Assembly (NCBI GenBank): GCA_965243835.1
Contig: OZ251578.1
Location: 732,854 to 796,853, forward strand
Source of the DNA: Candidatus Spongiisociaceae bacterium
Lineage (GTDB): Bacteria > Actinomycetota > Acidimicrobiia > Spongiisociales > Spongiisociaceae
Direction of reading: 5' to 3'
Length of the DNA stretch: 64,000 nt
The notes below the pieces were generated by a model that made no database searches, was not told where the DNA came from, and worked only from the letters and a program-made list of their open reading frames with translations. Of the stretch, positions 2,700 to 62,632 are shown piece by piece; within the stretch, counting starts at the first letter, position 1, and each line of letters opens with the position of its first letter. The position numbers and the translations under genes are program-made.

Positions 2700-2751
2700 T
2701 ACCCAAGGTCCCAAGGCGGCCCCCGCCCGTTGCCGGTCCGGGCGGAAAGAC

Positions 2752-3138: not shown

Positions 3139-3162
3139 AACCGCAGGCTACTACCGGGACGC

Positions 3163-3924
3163 CTACCGTTGGCCTGTCAGTTTGCGGTTGCGGAGTTTGG
3201 CCGACAGGTAATCCCGGTTCATCAAGGCGATGTTGTCCAGGGAGATTTCCTTCGGGCAGGCCGCCTCGCATTCCCCGTGATTGGTGCAGGAGCCGAAAAA
3301 CTCCTCCATTTTTTCCACCATCCCCTCCACCCGCTCCCATCGTTGCGGTTGCCCCTGGGGGAGCAGGTTCAGGTGGGCTACTTTGGCGGCGGTGAACAGT
3401 TGGGCGGCCCCGTTGGGGCAGGCGGCCACGCAGGCCGCGCACCCGATGCAGGCCGCCGCGTCCATAGCCGCGTCCGAAGCGGCTTTGGGGACCGGGACGG
3501 TGTTGGCTTCCGGAGCGGAACCGGCCGCCGCCGAAATGTATCCGCCCGCTTCGATGATCCGGTCCAGGGCGGTGCGGTCCACCACCAGGTCCCGGATTAC
3601 CGGCAGGGCGGTGGCCCGCCACGGCTCCACCGCGATGACGTCCCCGTCCCGGAATTGGCGCATATGCAGTTGGCAGGTGGCGGTCCCGGCCTGCGGGCCG
3701 TGCGCCTGCCCGTCGATCATCAGGCCGCACGAACCGCAGATGCCCTCCCGGCAGTCGTGGTCGAAGGCCACCGGTTCCCTCCCGGCCGCCTGCAGCCGTT
3801 CGTTCACTACGTCCAGCATTTCCAGAAACGACATGTCGGGGCTGACGTCGGGGGCCGGGTAGGTCTCGAACCGGCCCTCCGCCTCCGGTCCCGCCTGCCT
3901 CCAGATTCGCAAGGTGAGTTCCAT
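3163..3924 (-). CDS. sdhB: succinate dehydrogenase/fumarate reductase iron-sulfur subunit
   Basis: Cys clusters [22 protein letters not shown] and [12 protein letters not shown]. Start placed at [10 protein letters not shown] (ATG at 3924) rather than the longer track ORF. Confidence 0.9.
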
Positions 3925-42103: not shown

Positions 42104-42213
42104 TATTTTCCCTCCTCCGAATTCCCGCTCTCCCGGGGGTTCCGGACAACCGGGCGGTTTTGGGGAAGGATGGAATTCCCGCGTTTTGAGGCGGGGAGGT
42201 GTAAGATAAGAAT

Positions 42214-43464: not shown

Positions 43465-43492
43465 TAATCCCCTACCCCTGAACTGACCGGTT

Positions 43493-49423: not shown

Positions 49424-50560
49424 ATGACTAGAAAGAACCTGATTCGTTGGATTATAGGGGCGGTAGCGTTCGCCGTTCTAGTAGCCGTCCCGGTCTTCGC
49501 CCAAATTCAATTTAGCGATGTCCCCGAAGATGAAGACAATATCCGCCGGGCGGATATTCAGTTTGTAGCCGAAGAAGGTTGGTTTGCGGGCTACCCGGAC
49601 GGTACCTTCAAGCCCGACCGGAATATTTCCCCCGACCAGATGACAACGGTGCTAACTCGCGCCTTCGGCGAAGGGATAACGCGGGAGGAATTCGCCTCGT
49701 TCCTAAGATGGGGGAATATAGGCAAAGAACGGATAGCCCCTGCTATCTCCGCCGCTGACGCCGCCCGCGCCGCCGCCGAAGCCGCCTTCGAAGCCTACGG
49801 CGAATTGTTCTTCATACCCGGAGCAGACGAAGCCGAATACGCTAACACCGCCGAAGCCGCCCGCGCCGCTGCCCAAGCCGCCCACGCCGCTATCAACGCC
49901 TCCGCCGCCGCCCTCTCCGCCAAAGCCGCCGCGGAAGCCGCCGCCGCCGATGCCTGCCAAGACCGTCGGGACGGTGCCTCCGCTGAAGTGGTTTCCGCCG
50001 CCGCTCTCGCTACCGCCTCCGCCGCAGAAGCCGCCCTTGCCGCCGCTTCCGCCGAGGCCGCCCGCGCCGCCGCTTCCACCGCCCGCGCCGCCGCCCCCTA
50101 CGCCCTCTTTCTCCCTAGCAGAGATGCTGGCGTCGCTCACCGTGTCTTTAACCCCGACGCTTATATCGCCCTCTCCTATTACTCCGATGCCCTCGATGCC
50201 GTTGAGGCCGCCCGCGCTGTCCGCGATGCCGCCGACGACCTTCTCGAAGCCCACGGCTCTCAAGGTGCCCTTGCCGTCGCCCGTAGCGTCGCCTATGAAA
50301 CGCTTGACGAATACAGAGAATTATCCACCAAAGCCGAAATCGCCGATTCCTATGCCCGTAGCGCTAGCACCGTCGAAGCCTACTACTCCGGCGGTGCTCG
50401 CTCCTACGCAGAAGCCGCCCACCAAGCCGCCCGCGCTGATGCCCAAGCCGCTTGGGCTGCCGCCCGTCTAGCCAAAGACACCGCCGTCGCCTACGCCGAC
50501 ATTGCCGAAGTCGCCGCCGATGATGCCGCCGTTTGGGTTCGCGATGTCTGCTATTTATAA
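49424..50560 (+). CDS. secreted protein: one SLH-like domain plus a long Ala-rich helical region
   Basis: Signal peptide ...VAVPVFAQ then IQFSDVPEDEDNIRRADIQFVAEEGWFAGYPDGTFKPDRNISPDQMTTVLTRAF. The N-terminal module closely resembles 56311..56943 and 56967..57671. Confidence 0.7.
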   Translation: MTRKNLIRWIIGAVAFAVLVAVPVFAQIQFSDVPEDEDNIRRADIQFVAEEGWFAGYPDGTFKPDRNISPDQMTTVLTRAFGEGITREEFASFLRWGNIGKERIAPAISAADAARAAAEAAFEAYGELFFIPGADEAEYANTAEAARAAAQAAHAAINASAAALSAKAAAEAAAADACQDRRDGASAEVVSAAALATASAAEAALAAASAEAARAAASTARAAAPYALFLPSRDAGVAHRVFNPDAYIALSYYSDALDAVEAARAVRDAADDLLEAHGSQGALAVARSVAYETLDEYRELSTKAEIADSYARSASTVEAYYSGGARSYAEAAHQAARADAQAAWAAARLAKDTAVAYADIAEVAADDAAVWVRDVCYL

Positions 50561-50899
50561 GTCGTTCTTACGATAGTGTAGGTTGCCCCGCTTCCAGTTC
50601 CCGTCAGGCGGTGACGCATCTGGCTTTCGATGACTACTCACCTGTTGCAAAGCGAAGAAGCGGAAAGGGAGGCATAGGCGACCTTCGTAGAAGCGATCTA
50701 CATTGTCACACCTGACGATCATTTACCCGCTGGTGAAGTTGGCGGGGGCGGAACAAAGCAGGTCGTCGGGCCGGAGCGCCACGGCGTTGGTTGCCCGGAT
50801 TCTCCCGGCGATGCGGGGAAGTAACACTCTGAACCGGAGACGGCCCGCCGCGCCGCCGCTCTCCCTTGGCGTCGCTCGCTTCCCCTCCGAGAGAGGCGG

Positions 50900-52213
50900 T
50901 CAGGGGGCGGTGGCGCGCACCCCCCACCATGTCGACCATTCGGAGGGATGGCATTCGGTGATGAAATGGAGATCGCCCAAAGCCGGGTTCCGCCAGGGGA
51001 TGATGCACCTGGCCTCCGAGGGCGGCTCTACCTGTTGGAAGGTGAGGGAGCGGAAGGGATGCATGGGCACATTCTCCCTGTAGCCGTTTTCGCGACTGGG
51101 TGGTTCATTACGGACGGTCACTTGTCCACTGCTGAAGTCGTCGGGGGCGGTCCTGGTCAGGATGGGAAAGGCCGCTCTCGGCGACCTGGCCTCGAAACTT
51201 CTGCCGCGGTAGGGACTTTCTCCTTTATACATATGAAGCGTTTGAGGGATTTGCAACCATTCGTTCTCCCCAGAGATGGTGTGCAGGTCTACGCTGATAC
51301 CTATATCGATGGGTTTGGGCTTGACCGGGACGGGACCATCGGGATCGGCGATATAAGCGGCGAAGAGCGGAGTGTCGCCTTCTTCATCGGAGCCGGGATG
51401 AACAAACCAGTGGACCACCACATCCCGTTCATCGTAGGGCACCTCCGGCACCGGTTGCGGTGGGATGGTGACCGTCGGGCCGCGGGTGGTGGTAGTGGTC
51501 GGCGCGGTGGTGGTCGTGGTGGTAGTGGTCGGGACGGGGGGTCGCTCCGCAACCGACTGCCAGGGTATTTTCACCTCCGCCAATAGTCTTCCGTTCGCCG
51601 GGCCGCCGGGGCGGTATTCCGTTACCCGCACCGTTCCCATGGTCAGCTCGGCGAACCAGGCCAGCGGCGTGGTGTAGCGGGAGGCGGCGGTGGGGAAGGG
51701 GAGGTTGAGCGTCTGCCCGCCGTTGAACTCGATCCGGTAGGTCACCGGCGGGGAGCATGGAGTTACCAGGAAACGGATCTGCGCGGGAGGCTGGGCGGCG
51801 GCCGAGGTGCGTTCCGCCGCTCCGAGCGGCCAGCCGCACTGGGAGGCGCCGGCCGGGGCGGTGGTGAGGGGGATGGTGGCGGGGGCGGCCGTGGTTGCCG
51901 GGGGCGGCGTATCGGTCAGGGAAGGGAGGCCTCCGTACATTACTTGCGCCCAGTCGGCCCGCGTCCAAACATCGTATCGGTCATACAGCCGCTCCGCCAC
52001 CTTGATGAACTGCCCCTCCGAGAGTTCGTCATCGGGGCGCATATTGCCGTCCGGGAAGCCTTGGAACAGGCCCTCCGTTTTGGCGTAGCGGATGGCGTCT
52101 ATCCGCCGGTGGTCGTCCGGGACGTCGGGGAACCATCCTTCGGCGGCCCAGGCGCCCCCTCCGGCGAGTACGGCGGCGGTGAGTATCAGGGCGGCGGCGG
52201 TGCGGAGTTTCAT
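50900..52213 (-). CDS. secreted envelope protein A (SLH-like module, poly-Thr linker, variable C-terminal domain)
   Basis: Signal peptide MKLRTAAALILTAAVLAGGGAWA, then EGWFPDVPDDHRRIDAIRYAKTEGLFQGFPDGNMRPDD and T8/T5 runs. ATG at 52213 is preceded by GGAAGGAAAA and upstream module copy 1. Confidence 0.7.
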   Translation of the reverse strand: MKLRTAAALILTAAVLAGGGAWAAEGWFPDVPDDHRRIDAIRYAKTEGLFQGFPDGNMRPDDELSEGQFIKVAERLYDRYDVWTRADWAQVMYGGLPSLTDTPPPATTAAPATIPLTTAPAGASQCGWPLGAAERTSAAAQPPAQIRFLVTPCSPPVTYRIEFNGGQTLNLPFPTAASRYTTPLAWFAELTMGTVRVTEYRPGGPANGRLLAEVKIPWQSVAERPPVPTTTTTTTTAPTTTTTRGPTVTIPPQPVPEVPYDERDVVVHWFVHPGSDEEGDTPLFAAYIADPDGPVPVKPKPIDIGISVDLHTISGENEWLQIPQTLHMYKGESPYRGRSFEARSPRAAFPILTRTAPDDFSSGQVTVRNEPPSRENGYRENVPMHPFRSLTFQQVEPPSEARCIIPWRNPALGDLHFITECHPSEWSTWWGVRATAP

Positions 52214-52232
52214 AGTTGTGTTTTCCTTCCGG

Positions 52233-52349
52233 GTAGATGTTGGCAAAAACGCTACCCCCCCCCCCGTTTTGTCAAATTGAGATCGTTCACGTCGAGGTTC
52301 CGAGGGCGGGCGGGGGACCAAATTGGGCTTTGCGCTGGGATTATGCGGG
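52233..52349 (-). promoter_or_regulatory. conserved upstream module copy 1 (TTGACA at 52270-52275, G11 at 52255-52265, TAGCGT at 52249-52254)
   Basis: Minus-strand reading: CAATTTGACAAAAC-G11-TAGCGTTTTTGCCAACATCTAC. Shared with the copies at 54081, 58486 and 59828. Confidence 0.5.
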
Positions 52350-52592
52350 CGAGGCTGGGCGACGGCCGAGGTGCGTTCCGCCGCTCCGAGCGGCTAGCCG
52401 CACCGAGAGACGCCGGCCGGGGCGGTGGTGAGGGGGATGGTGGCGGGGGCGGCCGTGGTCGCCGGGGGCGGCGTATCGGTCAGGGAAGGGAGGCCTCCGT
52501 ACATTACTTGCGCCCAGTCGGCCCGCGTCCAAACATCGTATCGGTCATACAGCCGCTCCGCCACCTTGATGAACTGCCCCTCCGAGAGTTCG
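52345..52592 (-). pseudogene. truncated internal copy of envelope protein gene A (about codons 62-143)
   Basis: Aligns with 51783-52028 with about 8 mismatches and a 2 nt indel (by eye). An in-frame stop replaces GASQCGW (GVSRCG*). It has no signal peptide or start of its own family type. Confidence 0.75.
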
Positions 52593-52750
52593 ACGGGGGG
52601 AAGCGGGGAAGCGAGAGGGGCGGACATCCGGGGAGGAGGGGGGACGGGCCGGACGCGGGAGGGCGGGGGGGATGGGGTTTTTGCGGGGGCGGCGAGACGG
52701 CGGGGCACCGGTTCTTTCCGGGTTTCCCCCTCCCCGCCGCCTCCCAGGTT

Positions 52751-54061
52751 TTATTCGGCGGCGGGGGCGTTGGCCCGCACTCCCCACCAGGCGGCCCACT
52801 CGGAGGGGCGGCATTCGGGGCGGTACCGCAAACTCCAGGTTTTTCGCAAACCGGATGTGGACGAAGACCAGGGGTTGAGGAACGCCGCGACGCATTCGGC
52901 GGCGGGGGGTTGCGCTTCGACGAACGTGACGCTGCGGAAGGGATGCGGCGGCACTTCCCGCCCGCCTTTTATTTTGGGTTCGGCGAGACGCAACCGTATG
53001 CTCTCCCAGTCGGCGGGCACCGTCCAGGTGCGTATAGGGAAAGCGGCGGTCGACGAACTCGATCCGTACAACGAGAACCCGGTGTCCTCCCGCCTCTCCC
53101 CCACTTCACTGCTGGTAAATACCTCCAGACGGAAGAACAAACTGGCGTAGGGCATGTCGAGGGGGATGGGCCCGTCGGGGTCGGCCACATAGACCGAAAC
53201 GAACGAGAAGTCGCCCGGTTCCGCCCTGTGCCCGAAGTAGTGGATTATCACATCCCGCTGATCGTAGGGCACTTCCGGCACCGGTAGGGGCGGGATGGTG
53301 ACCGTCGGCGGCCTGGTGGTGGTCGTGGTCGGTGCCGGCAAGGTCGTAGTCGTGGTCGTGGTTGTGGTCGTGGTGGGTGCGGGGGGACGGGAAGCGGCCG
53401 ACTGCCAGGGTATCTTCGTCTCGCCCAGGAGCTCCCCGTCCGCCGGGCCGCCGGGGCGGTATTCCGTCACCCGCACCGTTCCCATCGTGAGGTCGGCGAA
53501 CCAGGCCAGCGGCGTCGTGTGCCGGGCGGCGGAGGTGGGGAAGGGGAGGTTGAGGGTTTGCCCGCCGTTGAACTCGATCCGGTAGGTAACTGGAGGGGAA
53601 CAGGGGGTTACCAGGAAACGGATTTGCGCCGGGGGGCTGGGGGCGGCGGTGATGCGTTCCGCCGCTCCGAGCGGCCACCCGCACGAACCGCTCGCCGGAA
53701 CCGGGGGAACGGTAGCGGCCGGCGGGCCCGGGGGGGCTGGCGGGGGCGGGGGCGGTGATCCGCTCAGGGAGGGGAGGCCGCCGTACATTACTTGCGCCCA
53801 GTCGGCCCGCGTCCAAACATCGTATCGGTCATACAGCCGCTCCGCCACCTTGATGAACTGCCCCTCCGAGAGTTCGTCATCGGGGCGCAGATTGCCGTCC
53901 GGGAAGCCTTGGAACAGGCCCTCCGTTTTGGCGTAGCGGATGGCGTCTATCCGCCGGTGGTCGTCCGGGACGTCGGGGAACCATCCTTCGGCGGCCCAGG
54001 CGCCGCCTCCGGCGAGTACGGCGGCGGTGAGTATCAGGGCGGCGGCGGTGCGGAGTTTCAT
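52751..54061 (-). CDS. secreted envelope protein B (paralog of A with divergent C-terminal third)
   Basis: The first ~95 aa are virtually identical to protein A. Middle region is collinear, the poly-Thr run is longer (T11), and the C-terminal ~170 aa are strongly diverged but end in the shared C(H/R)PSEW..WWGVRA motif. Confidence 0.7.
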   Translation of the reverse strand: MKLRTAAALILTAAVLAGGGAWAAEGWFPDVPDDHRRIDAIRYAKTEGLFQGFPDGNLRPDDELSEGQFIKVAERLYDRYDVWTRADWAQVMYGGLPSLSGSPPPPPPAPPGPPAATVPPVPASGSCGWPLGAAERITAAPSPPAQIRFLVTPCSPPVTYRIEFNGGQTLNLPFPTSAARHTTPLAWFADLTMGTVRVTEYRPGGPADGELLGETKIPWQSAASRPPAPTTTTTTTTTTTLPAPTTTTTRPPTVTIPPLPVPEVPYDQRDVIIHYFGHRAEPGDFSFVSVYVADPDGPIPLDMPYASLFFRLEVFTSSEVGERREDTGFSLYGSSSSTAAFPIRTWTVPADWESIRLRLAEPKIKGGREVPPHPFRSVTFVEAQPPAAECVAAFLNPWSSSTSGLRKTWSLRYRPECRPSEWAAWWGVRANAPAAE

Positions 54062-54080
54062 CGTTGTGTTTTCCTTCCGG

Positions 54081-54157
54081 GTGGATGTTGGCAAAAACGC
54101 TACCCCCCCCCCCGTTTTGTCAAATTGAGATCGTTCGCGATGGGGGTCCGACGGCGG
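54081..54157 (-). promoter_or_regulatory. conserved upstream module copy 2 (TTGACA at 54118-54123, G11 at 54103-54113, TAGCGT at 54097-54102)
   Basis: Identical in core to copy 1. The distal part of the module is replaced by unrelated sequence. Confidence 0.5.
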
Positions 54158-54190
54158 GAAGGTTGCCAGCGGGGGCCCGACGGTTTTGAT

Positions 54191-54219
54191 TTGACATCCT
54201 TTTTTAAATAATGTAGAAT
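54191..54219 (+). promoter_or_regulatory. near-consensus promoter TTGACA-17-TAGAAT in an AT-rich tract upstream of the HNH/DUF222 gene
   Basis: TTGACA at 54191-54196, a 17 nt spacer, TAGAAT at 54214-54219, about 45 nt before the ATG at 54265. Confidence 0.4.
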
Positions 54220-54264
54220 ATAGGAATAAATAATAATCAATCCGGGTTATACCCTATACAAGAA

Positions 54265-55581
54265 ATGTCACACCCCCCCGGTAAGGTGAACACCATGCAA
54301 CACAACCGCCAAACCCCGCCCGCAAACCCGGAGCAAACCTGCGCCCGGTCCGTAACGGCCACCGCCGTTGCGGTAGCCGATCTGCGCCAATTGCTGGGAG
54401 CGGGTTCTTCCCGCACCCGGCTGGGTCAAGTGGCGGAGGCGGTGAAGCAGATGGAAGCCTTGGTGTCTTCCCTGAAATGCGACTTGGCGGGACAGCTCAA
54501 CCGCACCGACGGCGGATCCGGGACGGGCGAGGTGTTACGGGATCAGTTGGGGGTTACCAACCATCAGGCCAAGCACCTGTCGCAGGTGGCCCGCCGCCTG
54601 GAGGAGATGCCCAACACCCGCGCCAAACTAGAGGCGGGGGAGATCACTTTGCAGAACGCCTCGGCGCTGGCCGCGGCCGCAAGCGAGTGCGGATCCCGGA
54701 AGGTGGATCAAAACGAAGGGTTGCTGAACGAGGCGGCGGCCGCCAACCCGGATGATTTCCGCAAGCGGTCCCGCCGGTGGGCCAACGCCCACAGTCCCGA
54801 TCGGGGCGAAGAGTTGTTGGAGCGGCAACGCCGGCGGCGCAAAGCGCACCTGTTTTGGAGCCGGGAATTGGAGATGGGGGTTCTGCGCGCCGAGTTGGAT
54901 TCCATAAGCTTCGGGCAAGTGCAACAAGCCCTCGATCAACACACCGACTTGCTGCGGAGGGACGACTCCGGCGGGGAAGTTCACCCCGATGATGTCCGCA
55001 CCGGCGACCAACGACGCGCCGATGCCTTGGTGGAGTTGTTAACCGGCCGCCGCGCCCACACCCTGGAGCCCCTTCCCGACGCCGGAGGCGCGGGTAAAGA
55101 CCCCACGCAGTTGGTGGTAGTAGCCGACTCGGGAGTGATAGACGGCTCCCGCCCGGACGGAAACTGCGAAATCCTGGGAACCGGACCCGTCCCGCCCTCG
55201 GTGCTGAGCAACCTGTCTCCCGACACTTCCGTGTGCGGGATCATCTTCAGCGGCAAAGGCCGAGTGTTGTGGCTGGGACGCAACCAACGCTTAGGCAACC
55301 AGGCCCAACGCTTGGCCGCGGCGGTACGGGACAAAGGATGCGTCAGGTGCGACGCCCCTGTTCACCGCACCGAGTTGCATCACCTGCGGGACTGGTACGA
55401 CGGCGGCCCCACCGACATCGACAACCTGGTCTCCCTATGCGGCCCCCACCACCGCGAACTCCAAGAACACAACCGGGAGTTGGTAAAAATTGGAAACAAG
55501 TGGCAAACCCGCCCCCGCACCGGCCCACCACTCCCCAAGCGCCGACCGGCCCGACCCCCCACCCGCGCCGCACCCCCCTGA
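54265..55581 (+). CDS. HNH endonuclease with DUF222 N-terminal domain (REP13E12-type)
   Basis: C-terminal CVRCDAPVHRTELHHLRDWYDGGPTDIDNLVSLCGPHH is an HNH motif. The N-terminal helical region is typical of actinobacterial DUF222 proteins. Confidence 0.85.
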   Translation: MSHPPGKVNTMQHNRQTPPANPEQTCARSVTATAVAVADLRQLLGAGSSRTRLGQVAEAVKQMEALVSSLKCDLAGQLNRTDGGSGTGEVLRDQLGVTNHQAKHLSQVARRLEEMPNTRAKLEAGEITLQNASALAAAASECGSRKVDQNEGLLNEAAAANPDDFRKRSRRWANAHSPDRGEELLERQRRRRKAHLFWSRELEMGVLRAELDSISFGQVQQALDQHTDLLRRDDSGGEVHPDDVRTGDQRRADALVELLTGRRAHTLEPLPDAGGAGKDPTQLVVVADSGVIDGSRPDGNCEILGTGPVPPSVLSNLSPDTSVCGIIFSGKGRVLWLGRNQRLGNQAQRLAAAVRDKGCVRCDAPVHRTELHHLRDWYDGGPTDIDNLVSLCGPHHRELQEHNRELVKIGNKWQTRPRTGPPLPKRRPARPPTRAAPP

Positions 55582-55775
55582 CAAACCAACCTCCCCACCC
55601 ATGGGTGTGGTGGTTGAGTATCCGTTTAGGCCACCGGAGAATCGTTTTTACCATCTTACGTTACTGGGAGGTATGGCCGGTTTGGTAGAGGACGGAGAAC
55701 TGGCTAGGTGTACACAGTCAGTAGGTTGGTTACAGTCTGGTACCAACCTAATTACCGCTTACGCCTTGAAGCCGC

Positions 55776-56294
55776 TTACCGGGTAGCGGTCTCGGCGACG
55801 CGTGCTTTGGCTTCTTCGGCAGATTTGGCTTCTTCAGAGGCTTTTTTAACGGTGTAGGCGACGGTGCCATAGGGGTCGTCGGCGTAGGCGGCGTAGGCGG
55901 CGCAAATGAAGGCGGCGGCTTGGGCGCAGGCGGCGGCGGCGAAGGCAACGGCTTTGTAGGTGGCTTTGACGCGGTCGGCGGCTTCATGGGCTTCGTAGGC
56001 GCGGGTGGCTATAGCGTCGGCGCGGTCGGCGGCACAACGGGCGGCTTTGGCGGCTTCGTAGGCGGCTTCGATGGCGCGATCGTATGTGCCAGCGGCGGCG
56101 TAGGTAGCGGCTTCGGAGACGCGGTCCTCGGCTTTTTTGGCGGCTTCGGCGGCTTCGGCGTAGGCGGCTTTGGCGTGGTCGGCAGCGAAGCTACCCTTGG
56201 TGTAGTCGGTTTGGATGGCGTCGCGGCCAGCTTTGGCGGCTTTGGCGGCGCGGCGGGCCATTTCTTTGGCGGTGGCTATAGCGTTGGCGGTCAT
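55776..56294 (-). CDS. Ala-rich helical protein, no signal peptide
   Basis: 172 aa ORF with a strong AAGGAGGA Shine-Dalgarno. Low-complexity A/E/K/Y composition (AAYAEAAEAAKKAE...). Last gene of a minus-strand cluster. Confidence 0.55.
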   Translation of the reverse strand: MTANAIATAKEMARRAAKAAKAGRDAIQTDYTKGSFAADHAKAAYAEAAEAAKKAEDRVSEAATYAAAGTYDRAIEAAYEAAKAARCAADRADAIATRAYEAHEAADRVKATYKAVAFAAAACAQAAAFICAAYAAYADDPYGTVAYTVKKASEEAKSAEEAKARVAETATR

Positions 56295-56310
56295 GGCGTT
56301 CCTCCTTTTT

Positions 56311-56943
56311 CTAGCAGTCTGTCATGAAGGCGAAGTCGGTTATAGATATTTCCATGACGAACGGTTCGGTGGTTTTTTCAAGTTGAATGTATCCGGCTAG
56401 GGGAGCGTCCGTAGCGGCTATCGCATCAAAGGTCTGTAGCCCGTCGGGTATATTCCCTAGCCGCATCCAACGGCATCCCGCCGGTAGTCGGTAGTGTCCG
56501 GGTTCAATATAACTATAATCATTATCGGTCCATGTGGTATTGTTGGGGTTATATCCGATAAAATATATATTATCCCCCGGAGACTCCAGTTCGCGGTAGC
56601 CTAGTGGATTTTCCCGTGATGGTCTTAGTCTTTCTTCGTTACCGGCTACTAGGAACGAGGCGAATTCGGCTCGGGTTATTCCTTCGTCAAACGCCCGCCA
56701 TAGCACACGGGTCATTTCGGAAGGGCTTATGTTCTGGTCGGGTTTATAGGTACCGTCCCCGTAGCCTATGAACCATCTTTGTTCAGCTACATAGTTGATG
56801 TTATCCAGATGGGGATTGTTAGCGGGGACATCGGAAAATTGTATCTGGGCGACTACCGGAACGGCCAGCAGTACGGCGGCGGCTACCGCTATAATCGTCC
56901 AACTAACGGCGGGTCTTCCCGGTCGGAGGCTAGGTCGTTTCAT
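56311..56943 (-). CDS. secreted protein: SLH-like module plus small C-terminal domain ending in Cys
   Basis: Signal peptide ...LAVPVVAQ then IQFSDVPANNPHLDNINYVAEQRWFIGYGDGTYKPDQNISPSEMTRVLWRAF. C-terminus ...CRWMRLGNIPDG...FDAIAATDAPLAGYIQLE...FMTDC. ATG at 56943 is preceded by GAAGGGAAA. Confidence 0.7.
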   Translation of the reverse strand: MKRPSLRPGRPAVSWTIIAVAAAVLLAVPVVAQIQFSDVPANNPHLDNINYVAEQRWFIGYGDGTYKPDQNISPSEMTRVLWRAFDEGITRAEFASFLVAGNEERLRPSRENPLGYRELESPGDNIYFIGYNPNNTTWTDNDYSYIEPGHYRLPAGCRWMRLGNIPDGLQTFDAIAATDAPLAGYIQLEKTTEPFVMEISITDFAFMTDC

Positions 56944-56966
56944 CGTATTTCCCTTCTTCGGTTCGT

Positions 56967-57671
56967 CTAACATTGTACCATGAAGGCGGTGTCGGTTGGT
57001 TCTATTCTAATAATATATGGTTGCCACGTGCTTTCAAGTTGAATGTGTCCGGCTAGGGGAGCGTCCGTAGCGGCTATCGTATCAAAGTTCTGTCCCCCTT
57101 CGGGTATATAACCTAACCGCATCCAACGACAGGCCTTGTCTACAGTACGATACCCCCACCCTCTATTATACACATGACAGGGATACCCGGGGGTGGTGGC
57201 AGCGCAATATCTTTCCGGCCCCTCGCCCCTTATTCGGATGCGTCCGGGTGAAATATAGTTCAATCCTTCCCTTCTTTCTTCGCCGGGCTTTTCAACTATG
57301 TATAGACCCGTTCTGACTACGAGGTTTCGGTAATCGGGAGTTTCTTTTATTCTTTGTCGCCATTCGTTTCCGGCGGTCATAAACGACGCGAATTCCGCCC
57401 GTGTTATCCCTTCTTCAAACGCCCGCGTTAGCACATTAGTCATCTGGGCGGGGGTTATTTTCTGGTCGGGTTTATAGGTACCGTCCCGATAGCCCAAGAA
57501 CCATCTTTCACCGGCTACATAGTTGATATCATCCCGGTGGGGGTTATCGCCAGCGACATCGGAAAATTGTATCTGGGCGAAGACGGGGACGGCTAGCAAG
57601 ACAGCGGCGGCTACGGCTATGGCCGTCCAACGGACGGGTCTGCTCGCTCGGAAGGCTCGTTTAATCTTCAT
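56967..57671 (-). CDS. secreted protein, paralog of 56311..56943
   Basis: Same signal peptide and SLH module, same C-terminal CRWMRLGYIPEG...FDTIAATDAPLAGHIQLE...FMVQC. ATG at 57671 is preceded by GAAAGGGA. Confidence 0.7.
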   Translation of the reverse strand: MKIKRAFRASRPVRWTAIAVAAAVLLAVPVFAQIQFSDVAGDNPHRDDINYVAGERWFLGYRDGTYKPDQKITPAQMTNVLTRAFEEGITRAEFASFMTAGNEWRQRIKETPDYRNLVVRTGLYIVEKPGEERREGLNYISPGRIRIRGEGPERYCAATTPGYPCHVYNRGWGYRTVDKACRWMRLGYIPEGGQNFDTIAATDAPLAGHIQLESTWQPYIIRIEPTDTAFMVQC

Positions 57672-57715
57672 CAGGTTCCCTTTCAATGGTTAACCGTCAT
57701 ATGGTACGGGTCGGG

Positions 57716-57982
57716 CTATCCCCTCCATCGTGCCATGGCAGCACCAAAACACATAATCCCAAGCACTTCCACGACTCGGCTCAAGTTTGCCCATAAAGAG
57801 GGTGGAGCTTCGTCTACGGAGGTAAATAAATATAGGACGATCGATCCGATCACCAAAGAGAAACCCAACCAAGCAAACACCTTGTCAATGGGGGCTTCGC
57901 CCTTTCGCTCGTTGGTGCAACCACTGTCCGTGCTGCCTTGGCAGTTGCACGAGTCGGACTTTGCGTTAATTTTGATCTTCAT
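57716..57982 (-). CDS. small membrane protein with Cys-rich N-terminus
   Basis: 88 aa. AGGAGGA Shine-Dalgarno 6 nt upstream of the ATG at 57982. N-terminus SDSCNCQGSTDSGC followed by two hydrophobic segments. Confidence 0.5.
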   Translation of the reverse strand: MKIKINAKSDSCNCQGSTDSGCTNERKGEAPIDKVFAWLGFSLVIGSIVLYLFTSVDEAPPSLWANLSRVVEVLGIMCFGAAMARWRG

Positions 57983-58463
57983 TGTCGTCCTCCTTGGGGC
58001 GGCTTGATTGAATTGTCGATGGGAATATGCCAAATCTTGATAAGACCGTGTTCGTCTTGTCGCGGATTACTTGCCAGGCGGGTACCTGGCGGGTCCGGAG
58101 CTCGCTTGGTGCGAGGCGGCATCCGTTTGCGGCTTTTATGGAGGGGGGATGGTTATCCTCAAGATCGCCCTGCCGGGTGGTTGCGGGTACTGTGGCGATG
58201 TTTCGGGTGTCGCAGTGGGGGTGGGCGGGTTCTGAGGCGGCCCGGCGGCTAGCGCGCATAAGGGCGGACGCGTCGGTGCTTGTGGCACCGATCGGTAAGG
58301 CTCTGGAGGACGACGGCTTCTCGGTAGGGAACCATCCCTCGCTACCGCAACGGCGGTTTGGGGGTTGCCGGGTTGCGCGGGGGAGCCGGGTTTGGGCATC
58401 GGTCGCCATAACGCCTGCGACCGACGTTACGGTCGATGCTACGGCGGCGGGTGGCGGTTTCAT
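57966..58463 (-). CDS. hypothetical protein or degenerate family member downstream of module copy 3
   Basis: ATG at 58463 is preceded by GGAAAGGA and the module. The N-terminus MKPPPAAVAS...GSEGWFP echoes MKLRTAA...AEGWFP of proteins A and B, but the remainder has odd composition. It may be a decayed gene. Confidence 0.3.
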   Translation of the reverse strand: MKPPPAAVASTVTSVAGVMATDAQTRLPRATRQPPNRRCGSEGWFPTEKPSSSRALPIGATSTDASALMRASRRAASEPAHPHCDTRNIATVPATTRQGDLEDNHPPSIKAANGCRLAPSELRTRQVPAWQVIRDKTNTVLSRFGIFPSTIQSSRPKEDDNEDQN

Positions 58464-58485
58464 CGGTCCTTTCCTGTCGCTCTTA

Positions 58486-58644
58486 GTGGATGTTGGCGAT
58501 AACGCTACCCCCCCCCCCGTTTTGTCAAATTGAGATCGTCTGCGTCGGGGATCCGGGGGTGGGCAGGTGACCGAAATTGGGCTATATCCTGGGGTTATGC
58601 AGAATTTTGGGGGGGCGGGCGTCCTCTCTTTTTTCTTGTTCTGA
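58486..58644 (-). promoter_or_regulatory. conserved upstream module copy 3 (TTGACA at 58523-58528, G11 at 58508-58518, TAGCGT at 58502-58507)
   Basis: Full-length version of the module, collinear with copy 4 over about 155 bp. Confidence 0.5.
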
Positions 58645-58947
58645 TCCGGGCGGGAACCATTTTTTCTGAGGCCAAGCGGGGCGCTTCGCGCTGGGCGCGT
58701 CCTCCCGTTTGCGGACTGCTTGGTGGGTGCGGGTGGGTCGGGCGGCGGGGCCGGGGAGGGTGATTTACGGCTCTGTGCGAGGAGCGGTGCGGGTGAAGGA
58801 GGGGTAACAAATCGCGGGTGGCTGACAGAGGTAGAGGGGTCCCGGGTTGGTGCGTGCGGAAGCGGGAGAGCCGTTATAGCTATAGCGCGGAAGGGGAGGC
58901 CGGGTTGGTGGACAGGTCTTCCCATCCTGGTACTTCCCCGGGGCGGG

Positions 58948-59064
58948 TCACCCCGTAGGCGGAGTACACAAGCCCTCCACGACCGGCTCCACTGCTACCA
59001 CAACCTCCGAGCCCACATAGGCCTTGGAGGAAAACCACCAACCGGCAGACTGTCAACAACCTAG
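58948..59064 (+). pseudogene. C-terminal remnant of an IS481/IS3-type integrase (transposase)
   Basis: SPRRRSTQALHDRLHCYHNLRAHIGLGGKPPTGRLSTT* parallels the ...WLHHYNHHRPHTALGG(Q/K)PPISRL C-terminus of DDE integrases. No catalytic core is visible upstream. Confidence 0.45.
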
Positions 59065-59126
59065 TGGCCATTTACACCCAGACCACCATCAAATCGGTAC
59101 TGGCTGTAACGTTAGGCTTCCACCAG

Positions 59127-59795
59127 CTATCCTGAGAAGTGTTGATTATATAAGGTCATACCCCGCCATCCGCCGTAGAAGCCGATGCCGCCAACGATAA
59201 TCCAAATTATTATCCCGAATATCGGGAAGCCGCCGGGTACCGGGAAGCCGTCCCCCGCTATGAGAAGACGGGAAAGCATTCCGGTTAGCGGGGCTTCCGC
59301 CGCCGATACGGCCGCCGATGCCGCTACCGCTTCCGCTTCCGCCGCCGCCGCTACCTCCGATACTATTTCCGGGTTCGTCGCCGCCATCGCCGCCTGCATC
59401 GCCTTTTCCGCTTCCGTTATCGCCGCCGTTTTCGCTATCTCTTCCGCCGCTTCCGCCGATGCCGCTACCGCTTCCGCTACCGCCGCTTCCGCTACCGCCA
59501 CGATATTCGGGTTCGCCGCCGTTTCCCATGCGGCTTCTTCCGCTACCTCCTCCACTATTTCCGGTTGGGCTATCTCCATTGACGGCAGGCTTCTCCTCCG
59601 TTCCAGTGCTACCGCTTCCGCCGCCACTTCCGCTACCGCTTCCCCCACCGTCGCCGCTTCCGCTTCCGCCGCCGGGCTTAGCCACCATTCATCCGGTTGC
59701 AAAGGGGAAAATATTCCGTAAAGATAAATTACCAGTCCGGCAAAGAACAGCAGGCCGCCGCCCGCTATTCCCCCGGTTATCCACTTTCGTTCCAT
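59127..59795 (-). CDS. membrane protein with N- and C-terminal TM segments and an Ala/Glu-rich repeat core
   Basis: MERKWITGGIAGGGLLFFAGLVIYLY..., repeated (A/E)AVAE/AAEA units with NP(N/E)IV punctuation, and C-terminus FPIFGIIIWIIVGGIGFYGGW. The alternative ATG at 59819 adds 8 aa. Confidence 0.55.
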   Translation of the reverse strand: MERKWITGGIAGGGLLFFAGLVIYLYGIFSPLQPDEWWLSPAAEAEAATVGEAVAEVAAEAVALERRRSLPSMEIAQPEIVEEVAEEAAWETAANPNIVAVAEAAVAEAVAASAEAAEEIAKTAAITEAEKAMQAAMAATNPEIVSEVAAAAEAEAVAASAAVSAAEAPLTGMLSRLLIAGDGFPVPGGFPIFGIIIWIIVGGIGFYGGWRGMTLYNQHFSG

Positions 59796-59827
59796 TCGGA
59801 AATCCCTTTCTATCCGCATCCGTCTTA

Positions 59828-59979
59828 GTGGATGTTGGCGAAAACGCTACCCCCCCCGTTTTGTCAAATTGAGATCGTCCGCGACGGGGGTCCGGAGAGG
59901 GCGGGGGGACCGAAATTGGGCTATATGCTGGGATTATGCGGGATTTTGGGGGGCGGGCGCGCTCTCTTTTTCTTGTTCC
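59828..59979 (-). promoter_or_regulatory. conserved upstream module copy 4 (TTGACA at 59862-59867, G8 at 59850-59857, TAGCGT at 59844-59849)
   Basis: Same module with a shorter G run. It abuts the 3' end of topA. Confidence 0.5.
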
Positions 59980-59998
59980 GAGGCGGGGGTCGCTGGGG

Positions 59999-62632
59999 TT
60001 AGTTGGAGCTTCTCCGGCGGGGGGTGCGGGGTTTGGGGGGCCACTTGCCGTCGGCTTTCATTTTTTGGCGACGGGACTCCAATAGTTCCGCGGCTCGTTG
60101 TTGGGTCAGGCCCTCCACCGTGTCGTTTTTGCGCAGGCTGGCGTTTACTACCCCGTCGGTTACGTAGAGTCCGAAGCGGCCGTCTTTGACCAGCACCGTG
60201 CCGCCCGACTCGGGGTCGGGGCCCAACTCTTTCAGCGGGGGGGCGGCGCTTCGGCCCTGGCCGCGGGCCGGTTTGGGTTGTTTGAACAGGGCGACCGCCT
60301 CCTCCAGGGTTATGTCCAGGATTTGCCGTTCGGAAACCAGGTTGCGGGTTTCGGAACCCATCATTAAATAAGGGCCGTAGCGTCCGTTGTTGGCGATGAT
60401 CGCCTCCCCGGTGTCGGGGTGGGGGCCCACCTCCCGGGGGATGGACAGAAGGCGCAGGGCGTCGTCCAGGCTCAACGCGTCCAGTTCCATATCCTTGAAC
60501 AGGGAGGCCCGCCGGGGTTTGCTTTTGGCTCCTTTGGCGCCGGCGCCGCCCTCCCCCAGTTGCACGTAGGGTCCGTAGCGTCCGGTCAGGCCCAGCACCA
60601 CCTCGCCGGTGTCGGGGTCGGTGCCCAGGATTTTCTGGGAGGGGGCCTCCAGCAGTTCCGCCGCCCGCTCCAAGGTGAGTTCGTCCGGGGGCAGGTCGGG
60701 GGGGATGGAAGCCGAGGCGTCCCCCCGGGTCAGGAAAGGCCCGTAGCGTCCCACCCTGGCGTACACCGACCGCCCCATTTCGTCGTCGCCGATGTGGAGG
60801 TTCAGTTTCTCGTAGTCGATGCGGCCCGTGTTCTCCTCCGAAACCATCGTCCGCAACCCGGGGGCGCCGTTGCCGTAGAAGAAGCGGCGCAACCAGGGGG
60901 CCCGGCTCTCCTCGCCCCGGGCGATCCGGTCCAGGTCGTCTTCCATGCGGGCCGTGAAATCCAAATCCACCAACTCCTGGAAGTAATTTTCCAAAAGGGC
61001 CACGGTGGTGAAAGCCGTAAAAGAGGGGACCAGGGCCGCCTCCTTTTTCCAGACGTATTCGCGGTCGATGATGCGGCTGATGATGCTGGCGTAAGTGGAG
61101 GGGCGTCCGATGCCCCGCTCCTCCAGTTCTTTCACCAACGTGGCCTCCGTGAATCGGGCGGGGGGTTTGGTGCGATGGTGCTTGGCCGTAACTTCCCGGG
61201 CGGTGGTCGGATCTCCCTCCGCCAGGTCGGGCAACAGGCGCTCCCGATCCTCCAGTTCCGCCTCCGGGTCGTCGGCGCCCGCCACGTAGGCCCGCAGAAA
61301 ACCGGGGAAGGTGATGGTCTTTCCGGAAGCGGTGAACTCCAACTCCGTGCCCCGGGCGGTCGTCCCGGCCAGGACCATTTTGGTGGTGGAGCCGCGGGCG
61401 GAGGCCATCTGCGAGGCCAGGGTGCGGTTCCAAATCAGTTCGTACACCGCCTGCTGATCCTTGTCCCCGATGTCCGCCGCCGCTTGCCGGGGGTCGCGCC
61501 ACCTCTCCCCGGCGGGGCGGATCGCTTCGTGGGCCTCTTGGGCGTTTTTGGCCTTGGTCGCGTAGTTGCGGGGCTTGGCGGACAGGTATTCGGAACCGAA
61601 TCGTTCCCGGATGATGCTGCGGGCCTGCTCCACCGCCCCCGGGGCCAGGGTGGTGCTGTCGGTGCGCATATAGGTGATGAACCCTTTTTCGTACAAGCCC
61701 TGGGCGGCCCGCATGGTGCGGGCGGCGTTGAAGCGCCGTTTGCGCGAGGCCTCCTGTTGCAAGGTGGAGGTGCGGAAAGGGGGGTAGGGGTTGCGGGTGT
61801 AGGGTTTTCTTTCCACCGACCGCACCGGAAAGTCCCGCCCCTGCGCCTCCTCGGCCAAGGCCGCGGCCCGGTCGGCGTCCAACTGCGCCGCCCGGGGGTT
61901 GGTCATCTCCCCCTGCGCGTTGAAATCCTTGCCGCCGACGGGGGCGGCCCCGTCGATGGAGGACAGGCGGGCGGTCAGGGACTCATCGCTCGGGGCGGCG
62001 AACACCCCCTCCAAACTCCACCAGTCCGCCGACCGGTGCGCCATGCGCGCCCGCTCCCGTTGCACCACCATCCGCACCGCCACGCTCTGCACCCGCCCCG
62101 CCGACAGGCCGGACTTGACCTTGGCCCACAGCACCGGCGACACGCCCCACCCCACCAGCCGGTCCAGGGTGCGGCGGGCTTCCTGGGCGTCCACCAGGTC
62201 CTGGTCGATGGCGCGGGGGTTGGCCAGGGAGGCCCGGATGGCTTCCCTGGTTATCTCGTGAAACACCATCCGGCGCACCGGCACCTTGGGTTGCAAAACC
62301 TCCACCAGGTGCCAGGCTATGGCCTCCCCCTCCCGGTCCTCGTCGGTGGCCAGGTACAACTCCGAGGCCTCTTTGAGCAGGCCTTTCAGTTCCCTGATGG
62401 TTTTCCGGCTGTTTTCCGACACCACGTACAAGGGCTCGAAATCCCGCTCCACGTTGACGCCCCAGTCCTTGGCCCACGACTGGTCGCGGTAGCTTTCCGG
62501 GATGTCCTTTTTGGAGCCGGGCAGATCGCGCACATGCCCCACCGAGGACGCCACCCGGTAGTCCGGGCCCAGAAAGCGGCCGATGGTGCGGGCCTTGGTC
62601 GGCGACTCGACGATCAACAGTGGTTTGGACAT
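59999..62632 (-). CDS. topA: DNA topoisomerase I (type IA), actinobacterial type with basic repeat-containing C-terminal domain
   Basis: TOPRIM N-terminus LLIVESPTKARTIGRFLG and active-site region GFITYMRTDS. C-terminal repeats GRYGPY... end in a Lys/Arg tail. GAAGGAG Shine-Dalgarno upstream. Confidence 0.95.
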   Translation of the reverse strand: MSKPLLIVESPTKARTIGRFLGPDYRVASSVGHVRDLPGSKKDIPESYRDQSWAKDWGVNVERDFEPLYVVSENSRKTIRELKGLLKEASELYLATDEDREGEAIAWHLVEVLQPKVPVRRMVFHEITREAIRASLANPRAIDQDLVDAQEARRTLDRLVGWGVSPVLWAKVKSGLSAGRVQSVAVRMVVQRERARMAHRSADWWSLEGVFAAPSDESLTARLSSIDGAAPVGGKDFNAQGEMTNPRAAQLDADRAAALAEEAQGRDFPVRSVERKPYTRNPYPPFRTSTLQQEASRKRRFNAARTMRAAQGLYEKGFITYMRTDSTTLAPGAVEQARSIIRERFGSEYLSAKPRNYATKAKNAQEAHEAIRPAGERWRDPRQAAADIGDKDQQAVYELIWNRTLASQMASARGSTTKMVLAGTTARGTELEFTASGKTITFPGFLRAYVAGADDPEAELEDRERLLPDLAEGDPTTAREVTAKHHRTKPPARFTEATLVKELEERGIGRPSTYASIISRIIDREYVWKKEAALVPSFTAFTTVALLENYFQELVDLDFTARMEDDLDRIARGEESRAPWLRRFFYGNGAPGLRTMVSEENTGRIDYEKLNLHIGDDEMGRSVYARVGRYGPFLTRGDASASIPPDLPPDELTLERAAELLEAPSQKILGTDPDTGEVVLGLTGRYGPYVQLGEGGAGAKGAKSKPRRASLFKDMELDALSLDDALRLLSIPREVGPHPDTGEAIIANNGRYGPYLMMGSETRNLVSERQILDITLEEAVALFKQPKPARGQGRSAAPPLKELGPDPESGGTVLVKDGRFGLYVTDGVVNASLRKNDTVEGLTQQRAAELLESRRQKMKADGKWPPKPRTPRRRSSN

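Follow-up and report, generated by a model that had tools for sequence, protein, structure and literature searches.

Tandem genes for putative wall-anchored envelope proteins with a probably recombination-homogenised 5' module and divergent C-terminal domains in an uncultured actinomycetotal lineage

The window analysed here, a stretch of 64,000 nucleotides, comes from an uncultured lineage of Actinomycetota without a close relative among the GTDB representative genomes. For the topoisomerase I gene (topA) of the window, identity to any such genome does not exceed 55%, with matches in Acidimicrobiia and other Actinomycetota. Two neighbouring genes on the minus strand, A and B, code for paralogous envelope proteins, and both of the ATG start codons proposed for them in an earlier note were borne out by the open reading frames. 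The genes and the features around them are as follows.

50900 to 52213, minus strand: gene A, 437 aa (open reading frame and translation)
51428 to 51538, minus strand: poly-Thr linker of A (aa 226-262)
51933 to 52288, minus strand: putatively homogenised block, copy in A
52249 to 52275, minus strand: promoter-like module core of A (pattern search, alignment of four copies, homopolymer list)
52289 to 52343, minus strand: upstream element (GCATAATCCCAGCG.AAAGCCCAATTT...), from the alignment of module copies
52344 to 52592, minus strand: relic F, a partial copy of gene A positions 51780-52028
52593 to 52750, minus strand: C-rich spacer that separates relic F from the B stop codon
52751 to 54061, minus strand: gene B, 436 aa (open reading frame and translation)
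53781 to 54136, minus strand: putatively homogenised block, copy in B, counterpart of 51933-52288
54097 to 54123, minus strand: promoter-like module core of B (G11 at 54103-54113)
54265 to 55581, plus strand, divergent: gene with DUF222 and HNH endonuclease domains (Pfam DUF222, E 1.1e-15; HNH, E 3.4e-7)

Protein A is composed of a putative signal peptide, a single SLH module (aa 28-70), a Pro/Thr linker, a beta-sandwich domain with a Cys pair (aa 126-225), the poly-Thr linker and a C-terminal beta-sandwich domain of the A type with a helical tail. Protein B has the same architecture, except that its C-terminal domain is of the B type. By inspection, the N-terminus, MKLRTAAALILTAAVLAGGGAWA|AEG, has a basic start, a hydrophobic core and an AxA site. 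An SLH-like module had been proposed for both proteins, and Pfam PF00395 (SLH) indeed gave one match above its curated cut-off of 20.8 bits in each, at aa 28-70 (A, 28.8 bits, E 1.2e-6; B, 29.9 bits, E 5.6e-7). When the profile of the family was searched against the PDB, its SLH part alone was matched, by the SLH parts of Bacillus anthracis Sap (E 3.7e-6) and Deinococcus radiodurans SlpA (E 3.4e-4); the best sequence matches were the Sap SLH structures 9g93, 3pyw and 6bt4. Orthologues of A are 93% and 81% identical to it in amino acid sequence, and the orthologue of B on contig L090 (P0005) is 97% identical. The family profile found no relative in the GTDB representative genomes and no match in the JGI metagenome contigs, and the NCBIfam search of the family gave no meaningful match.

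The AlphaFold2 model of A reached a pLDDT of 75-86 across both beta domains, and the model of B has its secondary-structure elements ordered as in A. A Foldseek search of the A model against the PDB returned generic FnIII, Ig and C2 beta-sandwich matches only, all with E > 0.001. The C-terminal domains of about 170 aa had earlier been described as barely alignable apart from a terminal motif. That description proved too strong, as the two domains have an identical order of strands and helices in the predicted models and align end to end via five common motifs (VPEVPYD.RDV, Y.ADPDGP.P, AAFPI, HPFRS.TF and EC.PSEW..WWGVRA). With one SLH motif each and about 410 aa in the mature form, including two small beta-sandwich domains, A and B fall outside the classical S-layer class, which has three tandem SLH motifs and a large self-assembling domain. 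No CsaB-type pyruvyl transferase, the enzyme expected where a pyruvylated secondary cell-wall polymer is the SLH ligand, was found among the called genes in the surroundings of the array at the related loci. Judged from these sequence features, A and B in all likelihood form a small tandem array encoding secreted, wall-anchored proteins with a putative Sec-type signal peptide, in which the first beta-sandwich domain is conserved and the C-terminal one variable. We infer that the SLH module mediates the anchoring; the signal peptide and the conserved Cys pairs point to an extracytoplasmic location.

The direct comparison of the two genes reproduced a block of 356 bp at an offset of 1848 bp, with four mismatches (52042, 52157, 52214 and 52235) and no indel. 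Within it lie the promoter-like module with the G11 run and the 5' UTR, followed by codons 1-94 for the signal peptide and the SLH module. As had been claimed from inspection by eye, identity along the genes is not uniform and drops steeply after the block. In a global alignment, 57-60 of every 60 bases are identical in the block and mostly 43-56 in the middle of the genes, where the count dips to 30-37 at both linkers, the first and the poly-Thr one; over the final ~500 bp it is 10-42. Overall, identity 3' of the block falls to 75-90% in mid-gene and ~50% at the 3' ends. The 133 bp directly 3' of the block contain 44 mismatches. A maximum chi-square scan gave an observed value of 258.7 against a largest permuted value of 18.5, and none of the 200 permutations reached the observed one. 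The stronger divergence of the middle region and the different lengths of the poly-Thr runs (T8 in A, T11 in B) were also upheld by the alignment and the translations. The synonymous divergence between A and B rises from 0.03 in codons 1-94 to 0.46 in the middle domain (dN 0.09) and ~1.3 in the C-terminal domain.

The core of the promoter-like module of A consists of TTGACA (52275-52270), AAAC, G11 (52265-52255) and TAGCGT (52254-52249). Its spacer of 15 nt does not fit the sigma-70 consensus spacing, and for this reason the modules of A and B were not called by a sigma-70 scan, whereas 54191-54219 was recognised as a promoter of the HNH gene. The upstream element at 52289-52343 is common to the other copies of the module and to all array copies in the related contigs L003-L005, and it is missing 5' of B in the window. 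The module is also located 5' of two unrelated genes of the window, at 58512 and 59851, and the alignment of four copies shows that its core is conserved even there; it is thus a shared regulatory element and not a feature specific to the array. All 11 copies of the family genes checked, which come from five genomes and include a frameshifted one, have a G11 run on their 5' side, as read from assembly consensus sequences, which hide variation of run length within a population. A run of G7 occurs only in one truncated family copy, and G8 at the module of an unrelated gene. A search of the JGI metagenome contigs for the module pattern with a variable G run gave no match, and Rfam, searched with 50500-60200 to a limit of E 1, yielded a single match at chance level and none for the module. 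The coupling of a surface-variation layout to the homopolymer promoter module, as drawn in the earlier note, finds no support in the constant G11 and in the presence of the module at unrelated genes.

The intergenic region holds a third, partial copy of the gene, which the earlier note had not recorded. Relic F (249 bp) follows the stop codon of B and precedes the upstream element of A. It corresponds to the SLH module from its midpoint on, to linker 1 and to the beginning of the beta domain. It differs from A at 6 positions in ~247 nt, 4 of them derived in F, and one difference is an in-frame TAG in place of the TGG of A (in CGWPLG). The junction of the B stop, the spacer and the first 96 bp of F recurs with 96.5% identity on the independent contig L090. 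The arrays of L003, L004 and L005 lack relic F between their genes, and the C-rich spacer, present in L090, is without a counterpart in the intergenic regions of the related arrays. A simple tandem duplication of an 1848-bp unit was considered and rejected, since 52289-52750 has no counterpart at 54137-54598 or 50441-50900.

Orthologous loci were compared on related contigs, all of which are short-read metagenome scaffolds; segment-wise identities were calculated for the window, L001, L003, L004 and L005. The HNH gene adjoins the first array member in every related contig (L001, L003, L004, L005 and L092). Between the contigs the array varies from one to three copies, truncated and frameshifted copies occur, and a third type of C-terminal domain exists (P0008). 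The 5' parts of the genes group by genome and the 3' parts by type. The 5' module is 99-100% identical within a genome versus 88-98% between genomes. In the 3' part, the A-type sequences are 85-94% identical to one another and the B-type sequences 66-91%, whereas A and B are only 52-56% identical, also within one genome. For the SLH module, dS stays at 0-0.03 inside each genome and reaches 0.33-0.41 when the window is compared with L003, L004 or L005, at a dN of ~0.01 between genomes. The synonymous sites of the module are therefore free to change.

This last result bears on the possibility that purifying selection alone keeps the block uniform, with a promoter, signal peptide and anchor that tolerate no change. 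The low dN does indicate a strong constraint on the SLH module at the protein level, and the core of the promoter module is kept even at unrelated genes, but the synonymous sites differ between genomes and not within them, and other adjacent pairs of SLH genes, used as controls, show just 69-78% nucleotide identity in their SLH parts. We consider this explanation extremely improbable.

The longest identical runs between paralogues measure 764 bp in L003, 789 bp between copies 1 and 2 of L005, and 502 bp between copy 3 of L005 and either of these. All of them begin 8-20 nt 5' of TTGACA and they end at different positions; L003 and L005 have ends in the poly-Thr linker, at alignment columns 912 and 930. 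The type of the C-terminal domain changes at the same linker, beyond which L091 and L004 are wholly diverged. Of the 4 block sites at which A and B differ, 2 bear the allele of the window's A copy in the B-type gene of L090, as does the nearest differing position 3' of the block. Thus paralogues are closer to each other inside the tract, genes group by orthology outside it, and the tracts end at different places in different lineages (lengths of 356, 502, 764 and 789 bp), which is the pattern of concerted evolution. The discordant grouping of the 5' and 3' parts, the dS contrast, the variable tract ends and the L090 alleles agree with the proposal of the earlier note that gene conversion or recombination acts over the 5' module. 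Taken together, these comparisons of sequence indicate that recombination within the array very probably keeps the promoter, signal peptide and SLH module uniform, without erasing the divergence of the C-terminal domains. The second half of the earlier proposal, that the exposed C-terminal domains diversify, finds no support for this array, as the A and B types are old (dS of 1.25 or more between them) and are kept as orthologues. The dN/dS among C-terminal orthologues (0.36-1.07) is raised and not clearly above 1.

A different history would start from a recent duplication, after which foreign 3' ends were imported by recombination at the linkers. The third C-terminal type speaks for such imports: in P0008 it follows 5' and middle portions that match the A-type copy of a near-identical strain at ~96% identity, with the poly-Thr linker as the point of junction and a transposase gene alongside, and conserved sequence lies on both sides of the variable core. 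However, the gene order HNH, B-type, A-type is the same in the window, L003, L004 and L005, with an anchor dS of 0.33-0.41, so that the pair is ancestral and not a recent duplicate; the alternative would require independent duplications followed by imports of the same types in the same order. The dS strata of 0.03, 0.46 and ~1.3 are also better matched by nested conversion events than by a single swap. As an account of the whole locus we regard this history as unlikely. Import of 3' ends may well operate alongside conversion, the two not being mutually exclusive.

The near-identity, the relic or the tandem layout could in principle come from collapsed repeats, or from reads of co-occurring strains mixed in a metagenome assembly. 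The short contigs L090 and L002 terminate precisely at the G run and within the common 96 bp, so assemblers evidently struggle at the array, and a collapsed graph node would yield just such 100% identical runs of 500-790 bp as L003 and L005 show. An assembler may merge identical repeats of that length, and the 100% values in these two contigs may therefore overstate the identity; in L001, where the array has a single copy, a repeat may have been skipped. However, the copies in the window retain the four differences in the block and have clearly distinct flanks, tandem arrays occur in four further samples without N runs, the B-spacer-F junction recurs in an independent sample with its own substitutions, and F carries 6 private differences from A. 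An artefact is therefore very unlikely.

The layout of the locus had been likened to known surface-variation systems. In such a reading, the array would be a contingency locus in which slippage of G11 switches promoters and partial copies such as F serve as silent donors; the G-rich element or the adjoining HNH nuclease might in addition start recombination. The conserved promoter and 5' module followed by a variable 3' domain resembles those systems, an 11-base homopolymer, a simple-sequence tract within the promoter of both A and B, separates TTGACA from TAGCGT, the identical tracts all begin just 5' of this module, a relic is present, the HNH gene is a constant neighbour, and shorter runs (G7, G8) exist. 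Against this, G11 is constant among the family copies as far as consensus sequences tell, and every full copy has its own promoter module, which leaves no single expression site. The sole promoterless piece, F, has a stop codon, is decaying, and copies the conserved SLH and linker part and not the variable domain. Both types, A and B, persist as orthologues from genome to genome, the module also precedes unrelated genes, and no recombinase gene was seen among the called genes adjoining the array. The likeness is thus one of layout, without an expression site and silent cassettes, and programmed variation is improbable here.

In the favoured reading, that of partial homogenisation by recombination, the A and B C-terminal types would be older than the split of the related genomes. 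Homologous recombination would then repeatedly overwrite the 5' part of an array member with the corresponding sequence from a second one, by events that would include non-reciprocal gene conversion and probably unequal crossing-over too; the pathway itself is deduced from the patterns described above. Such overwriting would leave the promoter, signal peptide and anchor near-identical within a genome and drifting between genomes. The tracts would begin just 5' of the promoter-like module and stop at variable points, mostly at the two low-complexity linkers, where length differences would break the homology. In the window, the last tract would have ended at linker 1, leaving the 356-bp block, and an older event probably spanned the middle domain, which has the intermediate dS of 0.46. 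The same recombination could account for the copy numbers of 1-3, the third C-terminal type, the truncated and frameshifted copies and relic F. It should be noted that the common upstream end of the tracts in all genomes could reflect selection on the shared regulatory module instead of the mechanics of conversion. An identical anchor would presumably be useful, as single-SLH proteins are thought to act as oligomers with one common wall ligand.

The same data can be arranged into a bolder scheme of modular surface display. Here the G11 module would be a fixed start of recombination, as a fragile homopolymer or through an HNH break, from which one-way tracts run and halt at the Thr/Pro linkers. 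One validated promoter-export-anchor unit would be kept, and the C-terminal types (A, B and C) would be swapped or re-sorted between array positions and strains; the G run might also switch expression. We think it unlikely that this scheme holds as a whole.

A literature search for SLH combined with gene conversion gave no directly relevant paper. The adjacent sap and eag genes of B. anthracis are likewise tandem genes of wall-anchored envelope proteins with a common signal peptide and SLH part and unrelated-looking C-terminal parts. Unlike A and B, with their one motif and ~410 mature residues, Sap and EA1 have three SLH motifs and form S-layers. The sap and eag genes are expressed in sequence under regulators, and we know of no report of near-identical nucleotide 5' parts in them. 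In tufA/tufB of Salmonella and in rRNA operons, duplicated genes that evolve in concert by gene conversion, paralogues within a genome are closer than orthologues, with a within-genome dS of about zero. Homogenisation there takes in the whole gene; in the array it is limited to the 5' module, whose sharp boundary shifts between genomes, and the copies are adjacent and variable in number. The sap homologues of Campylobacter fetus have a conserved 5' surface-binding region, a variable 3' part and recombination within the conserved part. However, one promoter on an invertible segment serves promoterless homologues in that system, whereas each copy here has its promoter module and no inversion system was seen at the array.

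The vlp genes of Mycoplasma hyorhinis are similar in being clustered and in having a conserved promoter, 5' UTR and signal peptide, a homopolymer in the promoter and divergent 3' ends. Their poly-A tract varies and switches expression, unlike the G11 run, constant 5' of the 11 family copies, and the Vlp products are lipoproteins with tandem repeats, whereas A and B are SLH proteins. The pilE/pilS and opa genes of Neisseria share with the array a non-reciprocal transfer between paralogous surface-protein genes. The process at pilE is triggered by a G-rich element 5' of the gene, comparable to the way in which the tracts here always begin beside G11; the latter is a single run and not a four-run quadruplex motif. 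Furthermore, the pilS copies are promoterless donors of the variable region, whereas the conserved region is transferred here.

Conceptually, the locus is an ordinary case of concerted evolution and adds no new mechanism. It would nevertheless be a clean natural case of partial concerted evolution in a bacterial envelope-protein array, in which each genome in effect has a single common unit for anchoring and expression and the exposed domains persist as distinct old types. As the array breaks or collapses short-read assemblies, its copy number and allele content are unreliable in metagenome-assembled genomes, which is a warning to annotators and assemblers. The array also marks envelope proteins of this lineage that are likely exposed and variable, and these are for that reason candidates for interaction with phages or a host.

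The tandem genes A and B, which are predicted to encode cell-wall-anchored proteins of 437 and 436 aa, were compared using a global alignment of both loci in gene orientation, and the identity was profiled in 60-nt windows. The features concerned are listed below.

50900-52213, minus strand: gene A, start MKLRTAAALILTAAVLAGGGAWAAEGWF
52751-54061, minus strand: gene B, same start
51933-52288 and 53781-54136: the A and B copies of the homogenised block (promoter-like module, G11 run, 5' UTR, putative signal peptide, SLH module)
52344-52592, minus strand: relic F, a partial copy of gene A
54265-55581, plus strand: divergent DUF222 and HNH endonuclease gene (HNH gene)

As the earlier note had described, the two copies of the block are 356 bp each, lie 1848 bp apart, and differ by four mismatches (52042, 52157, 52214, and 52235) and no indels. 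The block contained 57-60 identical bases per 60-nt window; the middle of the genes mostly contained 43-56, with 30-37 in linker 1 and the poly-Thr linker, and the last ~500 bp contained 10-42. The sharp identity boundary reported in that note was also apparent, as 44 mismatches fall within the 133 bp directly 3' of the block and a maximum chi-square scan gave 258.7, the highest of 200 permutations being 18.5. The poly-Thr lengths (T8 in A, T11 in B) were likewise as reported.

Homologues of A and B (35 matches) were confined to ENA metagenome assemblies labelled PANK22-1 and to Logan assemblies; profile scans of GTDB representative genomes and JGI metagenomes yielded no member of the family. 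As the window topA gene (topoisomerase I) is at most 55% identical to those of Acidimicrobiia and other Actinomycetota genomes, this uncultured actinomycetote has no close representative. The locus was syntenic across five contigs: topA comes first, then small genes, the divergent HNH gene, and the array. DUF222-HNH genes are typical of actinobacteria, and this one is the constant neighbour of the array on all related contigs (86-94% nucleotide identity); the idea that its product cuts the DNA beside the array is wholly speculative. The contents of the arrays are as follows.

Array content on the window and related metagenome contigs
L001 (closest, 93-96% nucleotide identity): A-type gene alone, immediately following the HNH gene
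Window: B, relic F, A
L003: B, A
L004: B, frameshifted A
L005: B, B', A
L091: B, a gene of a third C-terminal type (P0008), transposase gene
L092: B, then a copy cut off after 84 nt of coding sequence

The A-type copy of L004 (5477-6836) is frameshifted after about residue 330 (HMYRGE) with the remaining domain in another frame, which makes it a pseudogene unless the assembly is in error. The first array genes of L091 and L004 are 100% identical; in the second position of L091 (region 1180-3214), P0008 has 467 aa with a poly-Thr tail at the end, closely followed downstream by a DDE transposase gene on the opposite strand. The second copy of L092 (2512-2740) retains the promoter module (G7) and the 84 nt, after which unrelated AT-rich sequence follows.

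The earlier note had attributed the identity of the 5' module to repeated gene conversion or recombination. Comparison with the related loci supported and strengthened this reading: the copy number varied, and the 5' and 3' segments grouped discordantly. Over the last ~500 bp, genes of the same type were 85-94% (A-type) or 66-91% (B-type) identical across genomes, and A and B of one genome were 52-56% identical. Meanwhile, the promoter and SLH block was 99% identical between A and B in the window and 100% in L003 and among all three copies of L005, and 88-98% identical between genomes regardless of type. According to Nei-Gojobori estimates, the SLH module of the window differed from those of L003, L004, and L005 with a dS of 0.33-0.41 and a dN of about 0.01; within any genome, the dS was 0-0.03 and the dN about 0. 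The C-terminal domains of A and B showed a dS of 1.23-1.39 and a dN of 0.57-0.65. Purifying selection was rejected as the cause of the 5' identity, because synonymous sites change freely between genomes. A recent duplication was rejected as well, since both types and their order are older than the divergence of these genomes. Two other adjacent SLH gene pairs, taken as controls, were not homogenised, being 78% identical (window 56311-56973 and 56967-57686) and 69-73% identical in their SLH parts (contig L008, 5914-7884 and 8001-9356).

The longest identical runs between paralogues were 764 bp in L003, 789 bp between copies 1 and 2 of L005, and 502 bp between its copy 3 and either of these; the window tract comprises 356 bp with four differences. 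Every tract begins 8-20 nt upstream of TTGACA, the copies being 45-77% alike farther upstream. The 3' ends vary: the window tract stops at linker 1, that of L005 copy 3 within the middle domain, and those of L003 and of L005 copies 1 and 2 at the poly-Thr linker. Each of the two linkers consists of low-complexity DNA whose length differs between copies, and this heterology would plausibly stop the extension of heteroduplex. In the window, the middle domain has a dS of 0.46 between A and B, below that of the C-terminal domain, and A and B are 79% identical there, B being 70-72% identical to any copy from another genome. This suggests that an older, longer tract once covered the middle domain.

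Two further comparisons bear on exchange. The B-type gene of L090, a 1604-bp contig from an independent sample, carries the allele of the window A copy at two of the four sites separating A from B, and such polymorphism shared between paralogues is the expectation under exchange. The second genes of L091 and L004 match at ~96% as far as the poly-Thr linker, and their sequences are unrelated beyond it, so this linker may also be an exchange point of C-terminal types, or else the place of an assembler jump.

A third, partial copy that the earlier note had missed lies between B and A. Relic F corresponds to A 51780-52028, taking in the latter half of the SLH module together with linker 1 and the beginning of the domain that follows. 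It differs from A at 6 of ~247 positions, including a TAG in place of the TGG of A in CGWPLG. With the L001 orthologue as the outgroup, four of these changes were derived in F and two in A; this polarity indicates that F is decaying and postdates the divergence from the L001 lineage. In gene orientation, F is separated from the stop of B by a C-rich spacer of 158 bp (52750-52593), and an upstream element of 55 bp (52343-52289) lies between F and the homogenised block of A. The intergenic regions of the related arrays compared contained neither this spacer nor F. L090 is collinear with 54110-52497 at 96.5% identity; it covers the B orthologue and the spacer, continues for the first 96 bp of F, and stops where the sequence becomes three-fold repeated. 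An assembly artefact of the window was therefore rejected as the origin of F, the B-spacer-F junction recurring on this independent contig. A 104-aa ORF with a GTG start (52394-52708, minus strand) runs from the spacer in frame into F and stops at its TAG; it has neither a signal peptide nor a promoter module and is probably not a real gene, and a gene caller also predicted its equivalent on L090.

It should be added that all the comparison loci are short-read metagenome scaffolds (with no N runs), and that short contigs break at the G run and at the shared 96 bp. The identical stretches of 500-790 bp could be a collapsed consensus, and an assembler could have skipped a repeat in L001, which shows a single copy. 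In the window, the four differences, the distinct flanks, and the B-F junction confirmed by L090 make both the presence of two copies and their near-identity credible.

The architecture of the proteins was derived from the family alignment and AlphaFold2 models of A and B (the earlier note had proposed structure prediction of the C-terminal domains) and was the same for both. Each protein has a putative signal peptide, followed by a single SLH module, modelled as helical at low confidence, and by a Pro/Thr linker. Next comes a beta-sandwich domain (aa 126-225, pLDDT 74-83) with an invariant Cys pair; past the poly-Thr linker lies a C-terminal beta-sandwich with a helical tail and a second invariant Cys pair (aa 263-430, pLDDT mostly 60-86). 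Pfam gave a single above-threshold SLH match in each protein (aa 28-70); by this criterion they are SLH-domain proteins, not classical three-SLH S-layer proteins. The putative signal peptide and the Cys pairs point to an extracytoplasmic location. Foldseek against the PDB returned just generic FnIII, Ig, and C2 matches (all E > 0.001), and in the PDB and NCBIfam, profile searches picked up nothing beyond the SLH part. The variability of the C-terminal domain is clustered in two stretches (A residues 300-380 and 405-420) lying between conserved edges.

The homogenised block includes the motif TCAATTTGACAAAAC-G11-TAGCGTTTTTGCCAACATC. Four copies of this promoter module are present in the window, all of them on the minus strand (52259, 54107, 58512, and 59851). 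As two of these copies, one with G8, precede unrelated genes, the module is a regulatory element that several envelope genes share, rather than one peculiar to the array. The TTGACA-TAGCGT spacer is 15 nt when the run is G11, which is why a sigma-70 scan missed the module; an Rfam search gave no match for it. G11 was present upstream of all 11 family gene copies checked in five genomes (the preceding base is C or T), and G7 was confined within the array family to the truncated L092 copy. This argues against variation in the length of the run between strains, and bears on that level only. The module copies outside the array are ~100 nt long and consist of a GCATAA..CCCAG upstream element followed by TCAATTTGACAAAAC-Gn-TAGCGTT.

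58485-58614, minus strand: G11 at 58508-58518; upstream of small ORFs below 58457
59827-59953, minus strand: G8 at 59850-59857; upstream of the gene of a 230-aa Ala/Glu-rich membrane protein (59127-59819)

Gene B is without the ~100-bp upstream element found in every other array copy, including the first copies of L003, L004, and L005. The region between B and the HNH gene (54137-54260) is AT-rich and holds a near-consensus sigma-70 promoter, TTGACA-17-TAGAAT (54191-54219, plus strand), directed at the HNH gene.

The mechanism is best read as ordinary concerted evolution of a tandem array by partial gene conversion, probably with unequal crossing-over, in a poorly known lineage. The layout is like that of the tandem SLH-anchored proteins sap and eag of B. 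anthracis, the sap homologues of C. fetus, whose conserved 5' part encodes the surface-binding region, the vlp genes of M. hyorhinis with their conserved promoter and signal block containing a homopolymer, and pil and opa conversion in Neisseria. The earlier note had likened the layout to known surface-variation systems and coupled it to the homopolymer; both points remain a resemblance only. The array has no single expression site with silent cassettes, its sole promoterless piece spans a conserved region, and the G run did not vary in length among the 11 family gene copies checked.

As a whole, the window is an island of genes for SLH proteins. A 378-aa, mostly Ala-rich low-complexity SLH protein is encoded at 49424-50560 (plus strand), convergent with gene A; the segment 49291-50746 is missing entirely from L001 and L004 and is thus a presence/absence polymorphism. 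Neither of the two further tandem SLH-gene pairs contains a near-identical block: the minus-strand control pair at 56311-57686 keeps its identity level along long stretches, and the pair in 40887-43482 shows 70-73% along short repeats within the window, cross-matches via L001 giving 67% over ~620 bp.
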